Origin: a virus
Lineage: Duplodnaviria; Heunggongvirae; Uroviricota; Caudoviricetes
DNA: 64,000 nucleotides
Strand: one strand, 5' to 3'
IMG/VR virus record: IMGVR_UViG_3300031993_000021
Shown: piece by piece, positions 9,122 to 61,641 of the stretch
Layout of the letters: each line of letters begins with the position of its first letter
How positions within the stretch are numbered: position 1 is the first letter of the stretch
Position numbers and translations under genes: made by a program
Notes under the pieces: generated by a model
The model's database searches: none
Told to the model about the DNA's origin: nothing
What the model saw: only the letters and a program-made list of their open reading frames with translations

Positions 9122-9425
9122 TGAAACAATTCTTGTTGAAATAGTAAGAGTAAATACAAAAGAAGTAGCTGCATTATATCTTCAGGATTATATTCAGAGC
9201 AATGGCTTTTTAAGTAATGAAGCTGGGGATATAATCAAAAAGCTATTAAAAGAAAAAGATGATAAACCTAAGCCTGATGTAAAACCAAATATAGAACAGA
9301 TGATAAAAGAAATAGAGGAACTTCCTGATACCATTTATAGCGGCAGCATAATGGATGTAACAGGTGTTTCCTGTAAAAATATGAAGGATAAAGTCATTGA
9401 AATCATTAGAAAATACTCCAAATAA
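9108..9425 (+). CDS. phage hypothetical protein
   Basis: 105 aa, overlapping neighbours. Confidence 0.55.
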   Translation: MLNLNETILVEIVRVNTKEVAALYLQDYIQSNGFLSNEAGDIIKKLLKEKDDKPKPDVKPNIEQMIKEIEELPDTIYSGSIMDVTGVSCKNMKDKVIEIIRKYSK

Positions 9426-9747
9426 TCAAATAGGACAACGTATCAAGTATTTGTTAATCCATAATAGAATGAACCAGAGGGACCTTGCAGATAAAGCAGG
9501 CATTACGTATACATCATTATCTAGGTATATTAACGGTGAGCGCATTCCAAATGGTAAAATCTTGGCCCAAATTGCTACTGCGCTCAATATAGATGCAAAC
9601 TTTTTACTTGGAATAAATAAAGATGTAGAAGATCCTGAGAAAGATTTTTATAAGGCCCAGAGATTAGCGGCAAGAAGTGCTGATAAATGGACTAAGAAAC
9701 AGAAAGCAGATTTAATCTTAGCGATAATGGGAGTTAATAATGATTAA
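9397..9747 (+). CDS. XRE-family helix-turn-helix regulator
   Basis: IGQRIKYLLIHNRMNQRDLADKAGITYTSLSRYINGERIP; stop overlaps tnpB start. Confidence 0.9.
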   Translation: MKSLENTPNNQIGQRIKYLLIHNRMNQRDLADKAGITYTSLSRYINGERIPNGKILAQIATALNIDANFLLGINKDVEDPEKDFYKAQRLAARSADKWTKKQKADLILAIMGVNND

Positions 9748-10906
9748 GTCAATTAAAGTAATGCTACTTCCTAATAATTTTCAAAAAACAAGGCTTCATC
9801 AACACGCGGGAGCAGCAAGATTTCTTTATAACTGGGCGCTTGCAAAAGAAGAAGAGAATTATGAAGCAGGCGGAAAGTTTATTTCTTATTATGAACTTGC
9901 AAAAGAGCTTACCGAGATTAAGAAAACAGATGAGTATGCATGGCTTAATGATATATCTGCTTGTACTTGTCAGGCCGCGATTAAAGATGCTTGTGAGGCT
10001 TATAATAATTTCTTTAAAAAAAGAGCCAGGCATCCAAAATTTAAGTCAAAGAATAGATCGGCCCCTAGTTTTGCACAAACAGATCAGGCTATAGAGTTTA
10101 CTTCTACACATGTTAGACTTAGCAGTTTATCTAAAAGCCTTAAAAGAAATAGAAAAAAACTAAACTGGGTAAGGCTTGCCGAACATGGCAAGATACCAAT
10201 AGATGTAAAACATAGCAATCCAAGGATAACTTTTGATGGCATAAATTGGTGGATTAGTGTAGGAATAGACTATCCGGAAAATGATGTTAAATTATCTGAG
10301 GAGGGATTAGGTGTTGATCTAGGAATAAAAAACCTTGCTGTTTGTTCTGATGATAGCATTTATCCTAACATCAATAAGACTAAGGCAATCAAAGATTTAG
10401 AGAAGAGAAAACGAAGATTGCAACGAAGTATATCCAGGAAATATGAGATGAACAAAAAGGGGGATGAATTTGTAAAGACAAAAAATATAATAAAAGATGA
10501 GAAAAAGTTATTAAAGATGCACCACAGGTTGAGTAATATTAGAAAAAACTATCTGCATCATACATCAAAAGAGATAGTAGAAAAGAATCCAAAATATATC
10601 TGCATTGATGATCTTAATATTCAAAGTATGATGAAAAATAAATATCTTTCAAAAGCATTTCAAGAACAGTCGCTTTATGAATTTTCAAGACAGCTTGAAT
10701 ATAAGAGCAATTTCAAAGGAATTACATTTATCAGAGCAGATAAGGGTTATCCATCATCAAAGAAATGTAGCCTTTGTGGAAGGATAAAGAAGAATTTAAA
10801 GCCTTATCAAAAGACATATAAGTGTGAATGTGGAAATGTAATTGATGTTCATAAGCAAGCTGCACTTAACCTTAAATCTTATGGAGAAAATATTATTGCA
10901 GAATAA
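9740..10906 (+). CDS. tnpB: TnpB (IS200/IS605/IS607-type RNA-guided protein), RuvC triad altered to D/D/H, probably nuclease-dead
   Basis: N-terminal HAGAARFLYNWAL, RuvC-I GVDLG, RuvC-II ICIDDL (usually IEDL), Zn finger CSLCG..CECG, RuvC-III IDVHKQAALNL (usually DRD..AA.NL). Confidence 0.93.
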   Translation: MIKSIKVMLLPNNFQKTRLHQHAGAARFLYNWALAKEEENYEAGGKFISYYELAKELTEIKKTDEYAWLNDISACTCQAAIKDACEAYNNFFKKRARHPKFKSKNRSAPSFAQTDQAIEFTSTHVRLSSLSKSLKRNRKKLNWVRLAEHGKIPIDVKHSNPRITFDGINWWISVGIDYPENDVKLSEEGLGVDLGIKNLAVCSDDSIYPNINKTKAIKDLEKRKRRLQRSISRKYEMNKKGDEFVKTKNIIKDEKKLLKMHHRLSNIRKNYLHHTSKEIVEKNPKYICIDDLNIQSMMKNKYLSKAFQEQSLYEFSRQLEYKSNFKGITFIRADKGYPSSKKCSLCGRIKKNLKPYQKTYKCECGNVIDVHKQAALNLKSYGENIIAE

Positions 10907-11081
10907 AAATATTGTACCGGAAGCTGGTCCGGGAATTTACGCCTACGGAGTGTACTTGAACTTGTTAGTAGACAGCACCACCGTTGAAAGCATACACGAT
11001 GAAGTAGGAATGGAACATATAAGTATATCTTATTATAAGTTTTCAGCCGGGAGTAATCCCTTGCATCTTAAATAATTTGAC
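10907..11081 (+). ncRNA. TnpB omegaRNA scaffold (~10907-11050) plus guide-position segment (11051-11081)
   Basis: directly after tnpB stop; gtaccggaagctggtccgggaatttacgcc...aagttttcagccgg resembles clostridial TnpB right-end RNAs; 5' ccgg..ctg can pair with 3' cagccgg; boundary inferred. Confidence 0.7.
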
Positions 11082-11476
11082 CTTTTAGAAGTATGTAATT
11101 TGGCATAGGTGTAAAGCATATCAAGAAATGAAGTTTTAGAACTGATCTTTTAGAAGTATGTAATTTGGCATAGGTGTAAAGCTCCAATGGTGACAGCTGA
11201 CCTTTTGCAAAATTTTTTAGAAGTATGCAATTTTGCTTAGGTGCAAAGCTCAAGTGTGTTCATCTTTGCCACCAGAACTCTTTTAGAAGTATGCTTTTCT
11301 ATGTAGATGCAAAGCGGGCCACATTGCATCACGGTTTAAAGATATGAAATATTACATAGATGCAAAGCTGGCAGTGTCTTATAAGAAGCTATTTAAACTT
11401 CTAAAGGTATCTAAATTTGCATGGATGAAAAGCGTTTACGATATTGGAAGGAAATTAGTTTACATTGATGCAAAGC
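11082..11476 (+). CRISPR. CRISPR-like mini-array, 36-bp repeat CTTTTAGAAGTATGTAATTTGGCATAGGTGTAAAGC
   Basis: repeats at 11082-11117 and 11147-11182 (identical), 11214-11249, 11280-11315, 11333-11368, 11398-11433, 11441-11476 (more divergent distally); unique spacers of 29, 31, 30, 17, 29, 7 bp; no cas genes in window. Confidence 0.85.
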
Positions 11477-11802
11477 AGTACATGCAAATAATTCAGATGT
11501 AAAGCCTACGTTCTCATGACAAGAGAAATCAATTATTTCTTCTAAATAAGTGCAAAGCAAGTATGGTTATAGTTTTAATGCAAAGCAAATGTATGTATGT
11601 TTTTGATGCAAAGCCAGATCGTTATTTGGGTTGATAATATTTTTAGAAGCTTGATAAACCATACACCAAACTCATTAAAGCAAGCTTCTTTAAATTTATC
11701 AAGATGCAAAGTGTTGATATATTGTTAGCAAAAGGTCAATAGCAAAGTGAAGCATGTAATTGAGTAAAGAGGCAAAGCGGCACAGATATAAGGTTGCAAA
11801 GC
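11477..11802 (+). repeat. degenerate, mostly spacer-less tandem repeat tail of the array
   Basis: repeat 3' motif (GATGCAAAGC-like) recurs ending at 11505, 11558, 11586, 11614, 11681 (weak), 11712, 11748, 11778, 11802; units 24-67 bp, several with repeat-body fragments (aagtatg, gaagcatgtaatt). Confidence 0.7.
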
Positions 11803-11839
11803 TAAAGATGTTCATAAGCGGTAGAAAGAGGGAAGCAAA

Positions 11840-12049
11840 ATGAGTCCAGGAGTAACTAGAATAGTTTTATGTATGCTCAGTATAAATGTTATGATTTTAT
11901 CTTATTTAACACTAAAAATAACCATACAGCAGCGGCGTACACTCTTATTACTTGAAGATATTATAAAAGATAGGAAAAATAATAAATACAGTGAAACACT
12001 TGCAGATATAAAAAATTACCCTGGAGGAAAAAGAAGTGAAAACAAATGA
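11840..12049 (+). CDS. small membrane protein
   Basis: 69 aa, hydrophobic N-terminus. Confidence 0.5.
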   Translation: MSPGVTRIVLCMLSINVMILSYLTLKITIQQRRTLLLLEDIIKDRKNNKYSETLADIKNYPGGKRSENK

Positions 12050-12236
12050 GTTAGATCAGAGAATTGAAAAAGTAAGAAAGAGAGCAGAAGAAAGTAAGGT
12101 TGCATATGAAAGGGCATCCAAGGAATTAAAGAAGCTTATGGATAAAAAGAAATTGATACAAGCAGATGAGATCATGAATGCAATAGCAAAAAGCGGTAAA
12201 ACATACGAAGAAGTTCTTCAATCAATTACTGCATAA
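12036..12236 (+). CDS. small coiled-coil protein
   Basis: 66 aa, GTG start with GGAGG RBS, DEIMNAIAKSGKTYEEVL. Confidence 0.65.
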   Translation: MKTNELDQRIEKVRKRAEESKVAYERASKELKKLMDKKKLIQADEIMNAIAKSGKTYEEVLQSITA

Positions 12237-12563: not shown

Positions 12564-12767
12564 ATGCCAAGAAGTGAAGCAAAAAGACGAGCTGATAATA
12601 AATACAATCTGGCTCATTATACAGTGCTTGGTTGCAAGATGAAGATAACAGAGGCAGAAGAGTTTAAAACGGCCTGCAAGGACTCAGGAACAACCCCTAA
12701 TGCTGTCTTTAGAAAAGCAATAGAAAACTTTATGAAGAATTATAACAGCGGGGTAAAAGATGTCTGA
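12564..12767 (+). CDS. Arc/ribbon-helix-helix DNA-binding protein
   Basis: KRRADNKYN...VLGCKMKITEAEEFKTACKDSGTTPNAVFRKAIENFM. Confidence 0.7.
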   Translation: MPRSEAKRRADNKYNLAHYTVLGCKMKITEAEEFKTACKDSGTTPNAVFRKAIENFMKNYNSGVKDV

Positions 12768-13776
12768 GAATAAGAGTCAATACACTGATAAGATCAATAA
12801 GCTTTTAAATGAAATGCCTGATTTTGTTTCAGATTTTATTTATAACTTTGGCCGGGTTGAGAACTATGCGACTAAACTTGAATATTGCCGGGACATAAAG
12901 ATTTATCTTGAATTTATTGCTAATTATCTTAATGACAATTGCGAAAAGAGTATCAGGGAACTGTCAATAAAGGATGTTTCTAATATAGAGATCCTTGATA
13001 TAAACAGATTTCTAACAACACTTTCAGGAAATCACAAGGAATCAACCGTAAAAAGGAAACGTGCCTCATTATCAAGTATGTACGGATTTTTTGTAGCTAC
13101 GGGTAAAATGTCTCGCAATCCAATTGCAGCTACTAAGACAATAAAGGTTCCAAGTAAAGAGGTTGTTTATTTAACTAACGATGAACAACGGATACTTCTC
13201 AATACTGTAAGGCATGGAACTAAGCTTCGGGACTCAATTGCAAAGGTCCATTATATCTATGCTGATAGAGATTCGGCCATGTTTATATTACTTCTGGATA
13301 CCGGCCTTCGTGTTTCCGAGATGCTTGATACGGATATTATTGATTATAATCTTGAAGAGTGCAGCGTTGTTGTTACAAGGAAAGGTGGCGATACTCAGAT
13401 AGTATATTATTCCGATGAGTGCAGAGATTATCTTAAAAAATACTTTGACGCTCAAAAGACTAAATATGGATTATCAGAAAAGAATTTAAAATTTCCCGCT
13501 TTCACTACTTCTACCGGCAATAGATTGGGAGTACGTGCGGTTGAGATCCTTGTAAAGAAATATGTATCTGTATGCCTTCCGGACAAAACAAAGATAATAT
13601 CACCACACAAATTAAGATCGAGTTTTGCTATGAGTTTCTATGCTGCAAGTGATAAAGACATTCTTCTTCTTAAAAAGAAAATGAATCACAAGAGCATACA
13701 GACAACCAATATATATGCTAAAGCTTCTGATTCGGCTATGAGGGAATCACGGTCAATACTTCAGGGATTAAGATGA
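12760..13776 (+). CDS. XerC/XerD-like tyrosine recombinase
   Basis: TGLRVSEM (R), RKGG (K), SPHKLRSSF (HxxR), MNHKSIQTTNIY (H, Y); N-terminal SAM-like domain. Confidence 0.92.
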   Translation: MSENKSQYTDKINKLLNEMPDFVSDFIYNFGRVENYATKLEYCRDIKIYLEFIANYLNDNCEKSIRELSIKDVSNIEILDINRFLTTLSGNHKESTVKRKRASLSSMYGFFVATGKMSRNPIAATKTIKVPSKEVVYLTNDEQRILLNTVRHGTKLRDSIAKVHYIYADRDSAMFILLLDTGLRVSEMLDTDIIDYNLEECSVVVTRKGGDTQIVYYSDECRDYLKKYFDAQKTKYGLSEKNLKFPAFTTSTGNRLGVRAVEILVKKYVSVCLPDKTKIISPHKLRSSFAMSFYAASDKDILLLKKKMNHKSIQTTNIYAKASDSAMRESRSILQGLR

Positions 13777-20540: not shown

Positions 20541-20707
20541 GCAGTAGTAAGACACAGACAAGGACGATACGTATAAAGAATGAGACAGCGGACTTCTTTA
20601 GGGACAAGCCATTAAACAAAGTAGTTGAGAACGTGCATGACCTGGCGAAAAAGAAAGACATAGAGGTATATGAGAATGGGAAAATTGTTTTACTCGGTGG
20701 ACGGTGA
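20537..20707 (+). CDS. small RHH-like protein (not in ORF track)
   Basis: MSSSKTQTRTIRIKNETADFFRDKPLNKVVENV, 56 aa, ATGA overlap. Confidence 0.5.
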   Translation: MSSSKTQTRTIRIKNETADFFRDKPLNKVVENVHDLAKKKDIEVYENGKIVLLGGR

Positions 20708-21047
20708 GCATTTTGAGGAGCTGGGGCATGTAACTGACATCGAGCTTTCAGATGAAGAGGAAGAGATAGCGGAGAGATATTTCGTGTCAGATTCGTTTGA
20801 AGCATCCATACCTAAATCAGAAAGTGACAAGTTATTCCGCAGTATATTAGGTCAGAGCGCGTATAACTCGATGAAACTAAAGCAAGACGGATATTTAAGT
20901 CCTGAGAATGGGTGGTTTACACCGGGAGAGAGTTCAATTATAAGACTTTCACAAGAGATTGTAGAGAAGATCAAAAAGAAAGAACGTGTGAGGTGGATGC
21001 ATGACAAAGAAAGAGAAAGAAGCACTAAATCAGGCAGTGAAGAATGA
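20670..21047 (+). CDS. hypothetical protein
   Basis: 125 aa, in operon. Confidence 0.55.
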   Translation: MRMGKLFYSVDGEHFEELGHVTDIELSDEEEEIAERYFVSDSFEASIPKSESDKLFRSILGQSAYNSMKLKQDGYLSPENGWFTPGESSIIRLSQEIVEKIKKKERVRWMHDKERERSTKSGSEE

Positions 21048-35240: not shown

Positions 35241-35471
35241 GATCTTAACTTGCTGGTAAGAGAATATATTATCTTTTAAAACGCAAAAAACGCTTATTTT
35301 AGGGAAAAGCTAACTTGCTTTTAATTTGCTGATATACCATTAGTAGGTATAAACAGTAACGCTGATGCTACGTGCAAAGGCTGTTGGTTTTTTAGATACA
35401 TAAAGAATCTAAAATAGGAACTCAAATGATTTGAGTTGTTATTGAAAGAAATTAAACCTCCTGTCAATATA

Positions 35472-36476
35472 ATGGCAGGAGGTGATTTTGTGGAAGAAGT
35501 AATAAACAAAATTGTAAATGCGATGGATGATTTAACTCCGGAGCAGATAAGGAAATTAAAGAATGTATTGGTTATAAATCTCAGCAACCGATATGAACAA
35601 AAGAACGAGGTTTGTACAAGCTTAAGTAGTTGGGAGATGCTATTAAATAATTATCTTGGCTGTAAAAAGCTTGAAAACTGTTCTAACGGTACGCTAAAGA
35701 ACTATCAGAGAATTGTAAGGATTATGTATTCTCAGATAGGAAAAGATATTAGGGATATAACAGCTAATGATCTTAGATTGTTTATGGCAAGATACATTGA
35801 GCAGCGAAAGATTTCTACACGATATTCTGAGACGATAAGGCTTACGCTTTGTGCGTTTTTTCAATGGTGTCAGAATGAGGAAATCATAACTGCGAACCCG
35901 GCTAGAAAGTTGCAAAGAATAAAGATTCCTAAAATGCTTAGAAAGCCCTACACAGCAGAGGAAAGGCTAAGGCTTACAAGAGCTGCTAAAAATATAAGGG
36001 ACATAGCAATAATGGAAGTACTTTATAGTACAGCTGCTAGACTGGGTGAGATTTTAGCATTGAATATAGACGATATCAAATTTATTGGAAATAAAGCTGA
36101 AATCATCATCTACGGGCAAAAAGGCAAGGCAGAAAGAAAGGTATATCTTTCAGAAGAAAGTGTCTACTTTCTGAGAAGATACTTGGAATCAAGAACTGAT
36201 AATGATCCAGCACTTTTTGTTTCTTTGCGTAAACCGCATAAGAGGATTGATGAAAGAGCTGTTCAGCGAATGATAAAGGATATAGGTGAAAGATGTGGAA
36301 TTAAGGCACATCCTCACAAGTTTAGAAGAACACTCTTAACAGACATGAGTAAGCGTGGAGCAAGTATTCAGGATATTAAGGAATACGCCGGTCATGCAAA
36401 GATTGAAACGACTATGCTTTATGTTTCTGTTAATGAAGAATCGGTCAAAGCCGCATTTGATAGATTTATAAGTTGA
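35472..36476 (+). CDS. tyrosine recombinase (likely fibre-cassette invertase)
   Basis: TAARLGEI (R), GQKGK, HPHKFRRT (HxxR), GHAKIETTMLY (H, Y); adjacent to inverted cassette; start uncertain. Confidence 0.9.
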   Translation: MAGGDFVEEVINKIVNAMDDLTPEQIRKLKNVLVINLSNRYEQKNEVCTSLSSWEMLLNNYLGCKKLENCSNGTLKNYQRIVRIMYSQIGKDIRDITANDLRLFMARYIEQRKISTRYSETIRLTLCAFFQWCQNEEIITANPARKLQRIKIPKMLRKPYTAEERLRLTRAAKNIRDIAIMEVLYSTAARLGEILALNIDDIKFIGNKAEIIIYGQKGKAERKVYLSEESVYFLRRYLESRTDNDPALFVSLRKPHKRIDERAVQRMIKDIGERCGIKAHPHKFRRTLLTDMSKRGASIQDIKEYAGHAKIETTMLYVSVNEESVKAAFDRFIS

Positions 36477-60291: not shown

Positions 60292-61641
60292 TCATAAAAA
60301 TTTCCAAAGAATATCTACTCTGTCATTATATAGCTCAACCCTTGAAATAAGCGCATCTACAACTTTACGCTTGTCTTCGGTTGTGCCATTTTCAAAAGTT
60401 TCTTTGGCGATTTTTAGTGTATCAACTATATGTTTTTTTACAGCTTTCTTTGGCTTTTGACTTATTTTCTGTAAGGCTGCTTTTTTTGATTTCAGGTCCT
60501 TGATTTTCTTGGCAAGTTCTTCAACATCATCACCGCAGATTGCATATAGATCAATAAGTCGCTTAACCTGTTTGTCTATTTTTTCAATCTCGGCTGAATT
60601 ATCAACTATAGGAGTATCATCTTCTTTGATTTTAATCTTATCAGCATCCAATTTAAGGATTTCAGAAATAACAATATTATCTATTTCTTCTTCTTTTTTG
60701 GGTGTAAGCTCACATTTATGGTCAATCTTATTTAATTGTCCAGAATCAAGTCTTCCACATCTATAATAGCCAAATTTTTTTGACTTATAAGTGGTTGAAC
60801 ATGATCTGACTCTACTTCCACAATAACCACAAAAAATCATTCCGGTTAGTAGATGCTTTCCAGTAGGTGTTTTTCCACCTTTTTTTCGTTCATCAAGCAT
60901 TGTTTGTACCTTTTCAAATGTTTCCAAATCAATAATTGGTTCATGCTGTCCTTTATACTCACCAATCATACCTATATATACAGGATTGCTTAAGATTTTT
61001 CTAACTGTTCCAACATAATTCCATGAGGTATATCGTGTAGTGTAATGTTGCTGTAGGAAACGAGTTATATCACGGATGCTATTTCCATTTAGATACATAT
61101 TGAAAATAAGTTTTACTTGCTCGGATTCGGTATTTATATGTAATTTACCATCTTTATAATCGTAGCCTATTGGATTATAGTAACCTCCATGCCAAAGACC
61201 TTTTCTTTTTCTTCCTTCCTTACCCATTTTCATTCGTTCTTTAATTTGTGAGCGCTCAAGCTGAGCAAATGCAGAAAGAATGCCGACCATCGCGATGCCC
61301 AGCGCGGTTGACGTATCAAATGATTCTTCAATAGAAACGAAACTACAACCATGAGGGGCAAAAACATCTTGTATAAGATATAAAGTGTCTTTTTGGGACC
61401 TTGATAAACGGTCTAGTTTATTAACCAAAACTATATCGTATGCGTCAATTTCTTCAATGAGATTTTGTAGAGCAGGACGTTCAAGACTACCACCTGAGAA
61501 TCCGGGATCTTTATATATTTTTACTAAGTTCCAATCTTTTGAACTACAATAAGCTTTTATTCTTTTTTCTTGTTCAGACAAAGAATAGCCTTTATCTGCC
61601 TGTCGGTCTGTGCTTACGCGCAGATATGCTGCAATATTCAA
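60292..61641 (-). CDS. large serine recombinase (integrase)
   Basis: AAYLRVSTDRQ catalytic Ser, SGGSLERPALQ, KLDRLSR, recombinase domain, Zn ribbon CGYCG..YYRC, coiled coil. Confidence 0.95.
   Translation of the reverse strand: MNIAAYLRVSTDRQADKGYSLSEQEKRIKAYCSSKDWNLVKIYKDPGFSGGSLERPALQNLIEEIDAYDIVLVNKLDRLSRSQKDTLYLIQDVFAPHGCSFVSIEESFDTSTALGIAMVGILSAFAQLERSQIKERMKMGKEGRKRKGLWHGGYYNPIGYDYKDGKLHINTESEQVKLIFNMYLNGNSIRDITRFLQQHYTTRYTSWNYVGTVRKILSNPVYIGMIGEYKGQHEPIIDLETFEKVQTMLDERKKGGKTPTGKHLLTGMIFCGYCGSRVRSCSTTYKSKKFGYYRCGRLDSGQLNKIDHKCELTPKKEEEIDNIVISEILKLDADKIKIKEDDTPIVDNSAEIEKIDKQVKRLIDLYAICGDDVEELAKKIKDLKSKKAALQKISQKPKKAVKKHIVDTLKIAKETFENGTTEDKRKVVDALISRVELYNDRVDILWKFL

Follow-up and report, generated by a model that had tools for sequence, protein, structure and literature searches.

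The DNA analysed here is a stretch of 64 kb (the window) from a temperate rumen phage, out of the 76.4-kb IMG/VR virus record IMGVR_UViG_3300031993_000021, which encodes in this window a large terminase, a portal protein, a major head protein, tail fibres and integrases. The window contains a gene for the transposon-type protein TnpB, followed by an omegaRNA-like scaffold and an array of short palindromic repeats that are clustered and regularly interspaced (CRISPR). A first-pass annotation had proposed these three elements in this order, and NCBIfam, Rfam and the repeat coordinates place them at the positions claimed. The 36-bp repeats, the identity of the first two, the spacers of 29–31 bp and the distal decay were also described correctly, with repeats at 11082–11315 and a tail reaching to ~11802. 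The module comprises the following features:

9397–9747, + strand: XRE-type helix–turn–helix (HTH) gene, 116 aa (Pfam HTH_3, 3.5e-13)
9740–10906, + strand: tnpB, IS607/ISFba1 type, 388 aa (NCBIfam guided_TnpB, 1.7e-80)
10914–11050, + strand: omegaRNA or right-end element RNA (reRNA) scaffold (Rfam match, pseudoknot covariation and conservation)
11051–11081, + strand: leader at the position of the ancestral guide (clade alignments)
11082–11315, + strand: CRISPR array of four full 36-nt repeats (at 11082, 11147, 11214 and 11280) and three spacers
11118–11146, 11183–11213 and 11250–11279, + strand: the spacers of the window array, of 29, 31 and 30 nt
11316–11802, + strand: decayed tail of ~11 units, each with the repeat 3′ motif TGYAAAGY and then ~18–45 nt
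11632–11701, + strand: conserved long hairpin within the tail (fold and compensatory arm changes between lineages)

The open reading frame (ORF) of tnpB holds the Pfam domains HTH_OrfB_IS605, OrfB_IS605 and Cas12f1-like_TNB, that is, an architecture of HTH, RuvC and zinc ribbon. The closest solved relative is ISFba1 TnpB (PDB 8IAZ, E 2e-69), an IS607-type enzyme which is guided by a reRNA derived from RAGATH-18 (Ren et al., Cell Res 2024, PMC11061315) and which requires D194, E290 and D371 for cleavage (PMC11061315). The RuvC residues of the window protein are D193, D290, where relatives have Glu, and H371, where relatives have Asp; the zinc ribbon is intact with C343, C346, C362 and C364. We compared the triad in an alignment of 242 full-length TnpB relatives, in which the array-linked clade is represented by 16 full-length proteins that are 78–96% identical. 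The RuvC-III Asp is replaced in all 16 (His in 14, Asn in 2), the RuvC-II Glu has become Asp in 12 of them, and the invariant Arg of the D-R-D motif is Val or Ile throughout the clade, whose motif now reads D-[VI]-[HN]. Outside the clade the D-E-D triad is kept in 221 of 225 relatives. These replacements predict that the clade TnpB has lost cleavage, and because His alternates with Asn at the RuvC-III position, a new catalytic role for this residue seems disfavoured. In addition, the lysine that contacts the target-adjacent motif (TAM) in ISFba1, K83, is Gln in 16/16 clade proteins and Lys in 157/225 others, which suggests by homology that recognition of the target flank has probably changed.

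The clade gene is under strong purifying selection and not in decay: the ratio of nonsynonymous to synonymous substitution rates (dN/dS) is 0.04–0.10 with dS >1 for distant pairs, and all 10 aligned tnpB genes are intact. The loss of the RuvC-III Asp in the whole clade and the low dN/dS bear out the earlier view of the protein as a probably nuclease-dead TnpB. The module does not resemble a mobile insertion sequence, as the canonical right end GTAACGG is replaced and no transposon ends were found, and its position is fixed in synteny across phages.

The scaffold consists of a 5′ hairpin (10917–10932), a RAGATH-18 motif (10942–11010; Rfam 62 bits, gathering score 44.9), then a short hairpin, and the strand CCGG of the pseudoknot (11047–11050). 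A RAGATH-18 match is also located directly downstream of tnpB in the relatives, both within the clade and among the canonical TnpBs outside it. In ISFba1 the loop of the 5′ hairpin pairs with the last five scaffold bases (PMC11061315). This pseudoknot covaries in the same register, with CGTTA:TAACG in the canonical relatives vs. CTGG:CCGG in the clade, and because of this covariation we regard the clade scaffold as still a working RNA. Scaffold and leader are 87–98% identical between lineages, as compared with 42–79% at fourfold-degenerate sites of tnpB. Folding the scaffold as a single sequence gave a result no better than shuffles; the claims made here on RNA structure rest on Rfam and on covariation.

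In the place of the ancestral guide, the clade has a leader that is composed of a 4-bp hairpin GGGA-loop-TCCC (11049–11060, with a variable loop), the octamer TTGCATCT (11061–11068), a variable linker and the junction element AATTTGAC (11074–11081). The octamer is complementary to repeat positions 26–33, a segment ending 3 nt before the spacer, and is referred to as the anti-repeat. It is invariant across the clade and so is the junction element. The pairing of anti-repeat and repeat is intact in 96% of the cells compared (13 lineages), the common repeat variants are those which G–U pairing tolerates, and older units of the tail hold the perfect anti-repeat complement AGATGCAA. A scan for promoters and terminators gave no enrichment, and no terminator was found between tnpB and the array.

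The repeat itself forms a hairpin of 6 bp (positions 11–16 with 21–26). Double changes are seen in 4 of the 6 pairs and G–U pairs in 23 cells, and because of these compensatory changes and G–U pairs the structured molecule is, as judged from the alignments, the + strand RNA of the repeat. From 13 clade arrays we collected 59 distinct spacers, nearly all of 29–31 nt. Close relatives differ in the spacers adjacent to the scaffold and have the distal ones in common; one spacer is common to the window and the related loci L002 and L024 (relatives are denoted L for loci and G for genomes). This polarity supports an array that is real and dynamic, with new spacers entering at the omegaRNA side. The earlier remark that the omegaRNA occupies the place of a leader is also borne out. 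Spacers or blocks of two spacers are also duplicated within arrays (L002 7343–7838, L023 3269–3501 and L024 1462–1593); therefore recombination reshapes the arrays besides addition at the leader end. As a separate observation, the motif AGACAT[AG] occurs on one strand in 4 of the 6 spacers of the G001 array (L001 7378–7734) and in 5 of 59 overall (~0.3 expected), and it is not clustered anywhere in the genomes.

The decay of the array is strongly asymmetric. The tail of the window contains eight TGYAAAGY motifs, where 0.04 are expected, and a single motif of the repeat 5′ end; seven of the eight matches of ATGYAAAGY in the window fall within 11307–11712, all on the + strand (~0.03 expected). 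Taken together, the tails of seven lineages hold 44 of the 3′ motifs TGYAAAGY (~0.05 expected per tail) vs. four 5′ motifs, and the tail sequence as a whole evolves about as fast as fourfold sites. For a crRNA (CRISPR RNA) of Cas9, the downstream repeat must contribute its 5′ part, whereas a handle upstream of the guide is the logic of type V systems. The retained 3′ ends fit a type V-like upstream handle and not the logic of Cas9, and we consider this the strongest argument for an array that is read by TnpB. We also considered that the stretches of the tail might be fixed regulatory guides. The 20-nt stretches following the 3′ motifs gave no prefix match above shuffled controls in their own genomes, except for a known spacer; with matches at shuffled level and tails evolving near the fourfold rate, this idea was rejected. 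The long hairpin of the tail is found also at L003 7795–7901, L053 11806–11913 and L052 2966–3074. Its loop has an invariant ACACCAAAC and is followed by an invariant TTATCAAGATGCAAAG; the hairpin may serve as a site of processing or as an attenuator, or it may be what is left of a repeat:anti-repeat hairpin.

How tightly the array is linked to tnpB was assessed by repeat pattern scans of IMG/VR, JGI metagenomes and GTDB at one genome per species. Every repeat copy found adjoins this tnpB directly, except one more distant repeat beside a phage IscB. The array is present at all 13 clade loci with downstream DNA, and contigs of distant clade members (78–86% identical) likewise have the scaffold and then the array. 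Identity to the canonical relatives does not exceed 62%; these have the D-E-D triad and no array, and occur in hosts such as Lachnospira, from which the nearest canonical TnpBs come. The order of XRE gene, tnpB, scaffold and array, for which a search of related phages had been suggested, recurs in most relatives with variable spacers. Loss of the nuclease, the TAM-contact changes and gain of the array map to one branch, and the combination has persisted through long divergence. Among the canonical elements, L004 and L006 carry the right-end motif, TATAAGTTTTCAGTAACGG, once more at ~70 nt upstream of tnpB. The L009–L012 elements have left flanks rich in G that look like a ribosome-binding site (GGGGG, GGGAG, GAGGTG); they fit the AGGAG/GAGGG TAM reported for this TnpB family.

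The array did not grow out of the omegaRNA. The canonical scaffold ends in GTAACGG, before the leader position, and is followed by unrelated flanking DNA. Because of this the repeat is not a duplicated piece of the omegaRNA, and comparison of leaders and repeats indicates that the array was captured from the lineage of Cas9 and IscB (type II). The leader–repeat junction, AATTTGAC/CTTTTAGAAG, does not vary within the clade. In group-1 type II-A systems spacer integration depends on the leader anchor ATTTGAG/GTTT (Van Orden et al., PeerJ 2017, PMC5382924), and the phage junction AATTTGAC/CTTTT matches this anchor. The leader end of the type II-A array of Butyrivibrio fibrisolvens 16/4 reads ATTTGAC (PMC5382924 supplement), and the phage repeat is identical in register at 25/36 positions to the II-A repeat of Finegoldia magna (taken from the same supplement). 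The likeness to type II-A repeats, which the first-pass annotation had pointed out, is thus found in the published leader and repeat sets. A looser scan of IMG/VR yielded a repeat with 27/36 identical positions, the unusual end AAAGC among them, which lies upstream of a phage IscB gene. The two termini of the clade repeat are altered relative to II-A, with C instead of G at position 1 and AAAGC instead of AAAAC. A 92% match of the repeat to Listeria phage records proved to be a single 30-nt stretch in the coding region of an unverified record and was dismissed as chance. The IscB phage is complete (181 kb, terminal repeats; loci L057 2420–2620 and L058 1390–3033), and its IscB has 547 aa with RRXRR and HNH domains (OgeuIscB about 4e-29). 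Just upstream of this IscB gene lies a mini-array of three repeats with an anti-repeat folding back on the last repeat.

Targets were searched in 385 kb of family genomes, and 4 of the 59 spacers match the same phage family. The newest spacer of G001 has a 30/30 match within the complete G001 genome itself and another in the sibling G002. A less similar copy of this site lies in the window:

20642–20671, + strand: site 26/30 identical to the newest G001 spacer, spanning the ribosome-binding site and the start of the ORF 20670–21047

The second spacer matches 28/30 in its own genome, antisense inside the tape-measure gene, the third 27/30, antisense inside a replication gene, and the fourth 27/30 just outside the window. 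Self-derived spacers account for one of the six in the complete genome G001. The four targets show no strand bias and no promoter bias, and the AGGAG TAM of ISFba1 is absent at all four protospacers. For the three spacers of the window no target was found in IMG/VR with exact 23-mers, and a search of INPHARED with the L002 array gave no protospacer. Partial matches of 14–16 nt, for example of the newest L002 spacer in three genomes, were set aside as they are at chance level. The pattern of targets fits interference between related phages by an effector that is harmless upon a self-match, and it argues against use of the array by an active Cas9. The first-pass annotation had foreseen silencing of host or competitor-phage genes. 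All targets found lie in phages of the same family, on either strand inside genes, with one perfect self-match, a pattern that looks like interference between phages and not like promoter-directed regulation of host genes. At its 3′ end the self-matching spacer reads TAGAGGTATGT (L001 7397–7407), which agrees in 10 of 11 positions with repeat positions 5–15, TAGAAGTATGT; this likeness could be due to chance or to integration helped by microhomology.

No other effector and no adaptation genes were found in the phages. Neither the whole 76.4-kb record nor three relatives, of which one is complete and has terminal repeats, gave a match to Cas1, Cas2, Cas9 or RRXRR/IscB in profile searches; the complete relative measures 83 kb and is likewise without other effector or adaptation gene. 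Y1 TnpA was not found by profile search in G000, G001 and G003, a search that did not extend to the serine-recombinase TnpA. The absence of cas1, cas2, cas9 and tnpA noted at first thus holds for the record and its relatives, for tnpA as far as the Y1 type is concerned. Beside the array no cas9, cas1, cas2 or trans-activating crRNA (tracrRNA) was found, Csn2 not being among the genes searched, and the locus has no Rfam match to tracrRNA or CRISPR-DR. The metagenome-assembled genome that contains the contig of one relative gave no Cas9 match.

Upstream of tnpB the stop of the XRE gene overlaps the tnpB start by 8 nt, an overlap repeated in L049, L050, L051, L052 and L053; L045 and L054 have a different small ORF in place of the XRE gene. 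Three integrase-like genes are found in the window (12760–13776, 35436–36476 and 60292–61641). Relatives encode a Rep3-type replication initiator and ParA upstream of the module (L045 2067–4996, L049 839–2059 and L050 1866–3194), and because of these genes the phage family looks like temperate phage-plasmids. According to their records, the sequencing runs that contain the window DNA are gut metagenomes of bovine, sheep or unspecified origin. Three RNA libraries from the bovine gut yielded contigs that cover 10430–11111 (the 3′ half of tnpB and the scaffold up to repeat 1) and 11377–12099 (from the tail onward); they give a weak hint of expression of the tnpB–scaffold–array locus, given that DNA carry-over is possible in these contigs and that the uncovered parts and the depth figures are not interpretable.

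Taken together, the module is most likely a domesticated, catalytically inactive IS607-type TnpB whose scaffold is joined to a captured array of type II lineage. On balance we think it probable that the locus encodes a nuclease-dead DNA binder, similar to the transposon–CRISPR intermediates (TranC) discussed below, which is guided by the array and binds without cutting. According to this proposal, the XRE–tnpB–scaffold–array operon would be transcribed into a single RNA, and the scaffold with its 3′ extension, consisting of the small hairpin and the anti-repeat UUGCAUCU, would serve as a tracrRNA-like RNA. UUGCAUCU would pair at the 3′ end of every repeat, which reads AGRUGYAA and then AGC, and so put the downstream spacer at the start of the ancestral single guide, and TnpB would bind the matching DNA without cutting it. 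New spacers would be inserted at the leader end, probably in trans by the type II-A adaptation machinery of a host, because the phage is devoid of Cas1 and Cas2 while the junction, the 36-nt repeat and the 30-nt spacers are of II-A type. The module could be used to silence or block related phages that superinfect the same cell, and binding without cutting would make accidental self-matching spacers tolerable. More tentatively, and with clearly less confidence, we put forward the complete picture of a cross-type chimera: a dead IS607 TnpB on phage-plasmids which may read a captured type II-lineage array, refilled in trans by host II-A adaptation, as a self-safe, binding-only memory of rival phages, and which would have arisen by array capture and an added anti-repeat and not by duplication of the omegaRNA.

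Several points weigh against guidance of TnpB by the array. That TnpB loads the array RNAs is inferred. The anti-repeat has just 8 nt, and because it never varies, no two-sided covariation is seen; four cells are mismatched and three lineages have an A–C mismatch. No flank is common to the four protospacers on either side, and hence no TAM is seen. All clade loci come from one origin, and the linkage of tnpB and array counts as one evolutionary event. The repeat and leader belong to the Cas9/IscB lineage and are not derived from the omegaRNA. Finally, if host adaptation refills the array, a compatible host Cas9 must exist and could be the real user.

This last point leads to the alternative that a type II effector in trans, either host Cas9 with its tracrRNA or the IscB or Cas9 of a co-resident element, uses the array and arms the lysogen against rivals, with the dead TnpB being separate and the array merely borrowing the tnpB transcript. 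The match of the junction AATTTGAC/CTTTT to the II-A anchor and the ATTTGAC of Butyrivibrio fibrisolvens 16/4, the resemblance of the repeat to those of Finegoldia magna (25/36) and of the phage IscB mini-array (27/36), and repeat and spacer lengths of 36 and 30 nt are all in agreement with such a user, as is the fact that adaptation must come from outside the phage. Nevertheless, we consider it rather unlikely. The newest spacer with its 30/30 self-match in a complete genome and the 28/30 self-match elsewhere would be lethal with an active Cas9, and what the decayed units retain of the repeat is its 3′ end and not the 5′ end required in a Cas9 crRNA. Moreover, no host array with this repeat is found in GTDB (one genome per species, strict pattern), and the strong selection on the dead TnpB and the leader would be left unexplained. 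Alternatively, the array might be a decoy or sink that mimics the leader and repeat of host II-A systems and diverts adaptation complexes or Cas9/tracrRNA, the dead TnpB neutralising the resulting RNAs, in other words an RNA-based anti-CRISPR. II-A-type features combined with altered repeat termini (C at position 1, AAAGC), the occurrence of self-derived spacers and a phage without nuclease-active effector could be read in this way. We hold this to be improbable, as self-derived spacers are only one of six in G001 and most spacers match nothing in the family, while a sink would need neither a conserved anti-repeat nor relics of a 3′ handle; in addition, the known repeat-mimicking anti-CRISPR RNAs are reportedly solitary repeats without spacer turnover.

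It is also conceivable that the spacers are never guides and that the protein is a factor similar to the dead repressors called TldR, with one fixed short guide in cis, the UUGCAUCU segment, which binds DNA at the AGATGCAA sites that its own array and tail contain, for instance to control array transcription or as a cluster of binding sites. The 8-nt complementarity can be read as pairing of RNA with DNA, the seven tails have 4–9 sites each, always followed by AAGC or AAGT as a possible flank on the other strand, and TldRs with 9-nt guides have been reported (PMC13622181). Yet the complementarity ends at 8 nt, the G–U-type variants of the first repeats pair as RNA with RNA and are RNA–DNA mismatches on one reading only, and a refillable array with intact leader signals in all lineages would remain unexplained. 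This leaves the short fixed guide slightly less credible still than the decoy. Least of all do we believe in a decaying relic, in which an IS607 tnpB landed beside a phage-borne array and both are functionless. The lost RuvC site and the decaying distal array are what such a relic would show, but it is close to refuted by the selection data: 10/10 aligned genes are intact with dN/dS of 0.04–0.10 at saturated dS, conservation of scaffold and leader far exceeds that of neutral sites, and spacer turnover is ongoing.

With array-guided binding as the preferred reading, the locus can be compared with known systems. It resembles ISFba1 in domain order and size (388 vs. 387 aa), in a scaffold located wholly downstream of the gene, in the RAGATH-18 motif and in the pseudoknot that joins the loop of the 5′ hairpin to the scaffold end. 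It differs from ISFba1 in two changed cleavage residues, the neighbouring Arg replaced by Val or Ile and the TAM-contact Lys83 replaced by Gln. Furthermore, the clade module lacks TnpA and transposon ends, is fixed in the phage and has a CRISPR array where ISFba1 has a single guide.

TranCs are described, in the account of Jin et al. (Cell 2025) given in PMC13565253, as intermediates that arose several times from IS605 or IS607 TnpB, and a TnpB-sized member from a phage is CauTranC9 (bioRxiv 10.64898/2026.03.27.714800). In common with TranCs, the clade has a TnpB-like effector stably linked to a short array with variable spacers, no adaptation genes and, as proposed here, a scaffold acting as tracrRNA; some TranCs are also located on phages and have anti-phage spacers. 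In contrast, the TranCs described or tested are active nucleases with a protospacer-adjacent motif, whereas the clade has lost the RuvC-III Asp, and the TranC repeat is said to come from splitting of the reRNA, whereas the clade repeat belongs to the type II family. The window TnpB matches LaTranC weakly (E 8e-12, C-terminal part only), and therefore the clade appears to be of independent origin.

TldRs are nuclease-dead repressors related to TnpB (Wiegand et al. 2024; bioRxiv 10.1101/2023.11.30.569447; PMC13622181). Like them, the clade protein is a nuclease-dead TnpB derivative, kept together with its omegaRNA, often on a prophage, and expected to bind and block DNA. Unlike TldR, which has one fixed guide to the promoter of a linked gene, the clade has a structured leader and a multi-spacer array that turns over, and its protein is of full length with an intact zinc ribbon. 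The TldR literature that we searched makes no mention of arrays.

Among type V effectors, Cas12m, Cas12c and Cas12k bind without cutting, and Cas12m silences mobile elements (PMC10691335, PMC13565253). These are, as predicted here for the clade, array-guided proteins of the RuvC fold, but they are larger, lie on other branches and have their own repeats, none being reported with a repeat and leader of type II. The V-U groups with altered RuvC and Cas12m are the nearest published analogues. The array as such is like those of type II-A in its 36-nt repeat, spacers of ~30 nt and a leader end similar to ATTTGAG; it differs from them in the absence of Cas9, Cas1 and Cas2 in the profile searches (which did not include Csn2), in having no recognisable tracrRNA, in the altered repeat termini and in its fusion to a TnpB scaffold. 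All in all, the locus would work most like a TranC or a Cas12m-type system with a dead nuclease.

The first-pass annotation had seen the locus as a phage-borne intermediate between TnpB and a Cas12-like system. A simple intermediate of this kind, with an array grown from the omegaRNA, has to be given up in favour of a type II-lineage array captured beside TnpB. The published derivatives of TnpB are either cutters guided by arrays (TranC, Cas12) or dead repressors with a single guide (TldR); in the clade, a dead effector goes together with an array that can be refilled and that stems from the other class 2 lineage, that of Cas9 and IscB. If TnpB indeed loads these guides, capture of an array that already exists is a route to a type V-like system, an alternative left open in PMC10691335, and a natural multiplex DNA binder of 388 aa exists. 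Under the same condition, a phage can use the adaptation of its host without cas1 and cas2 of its own.

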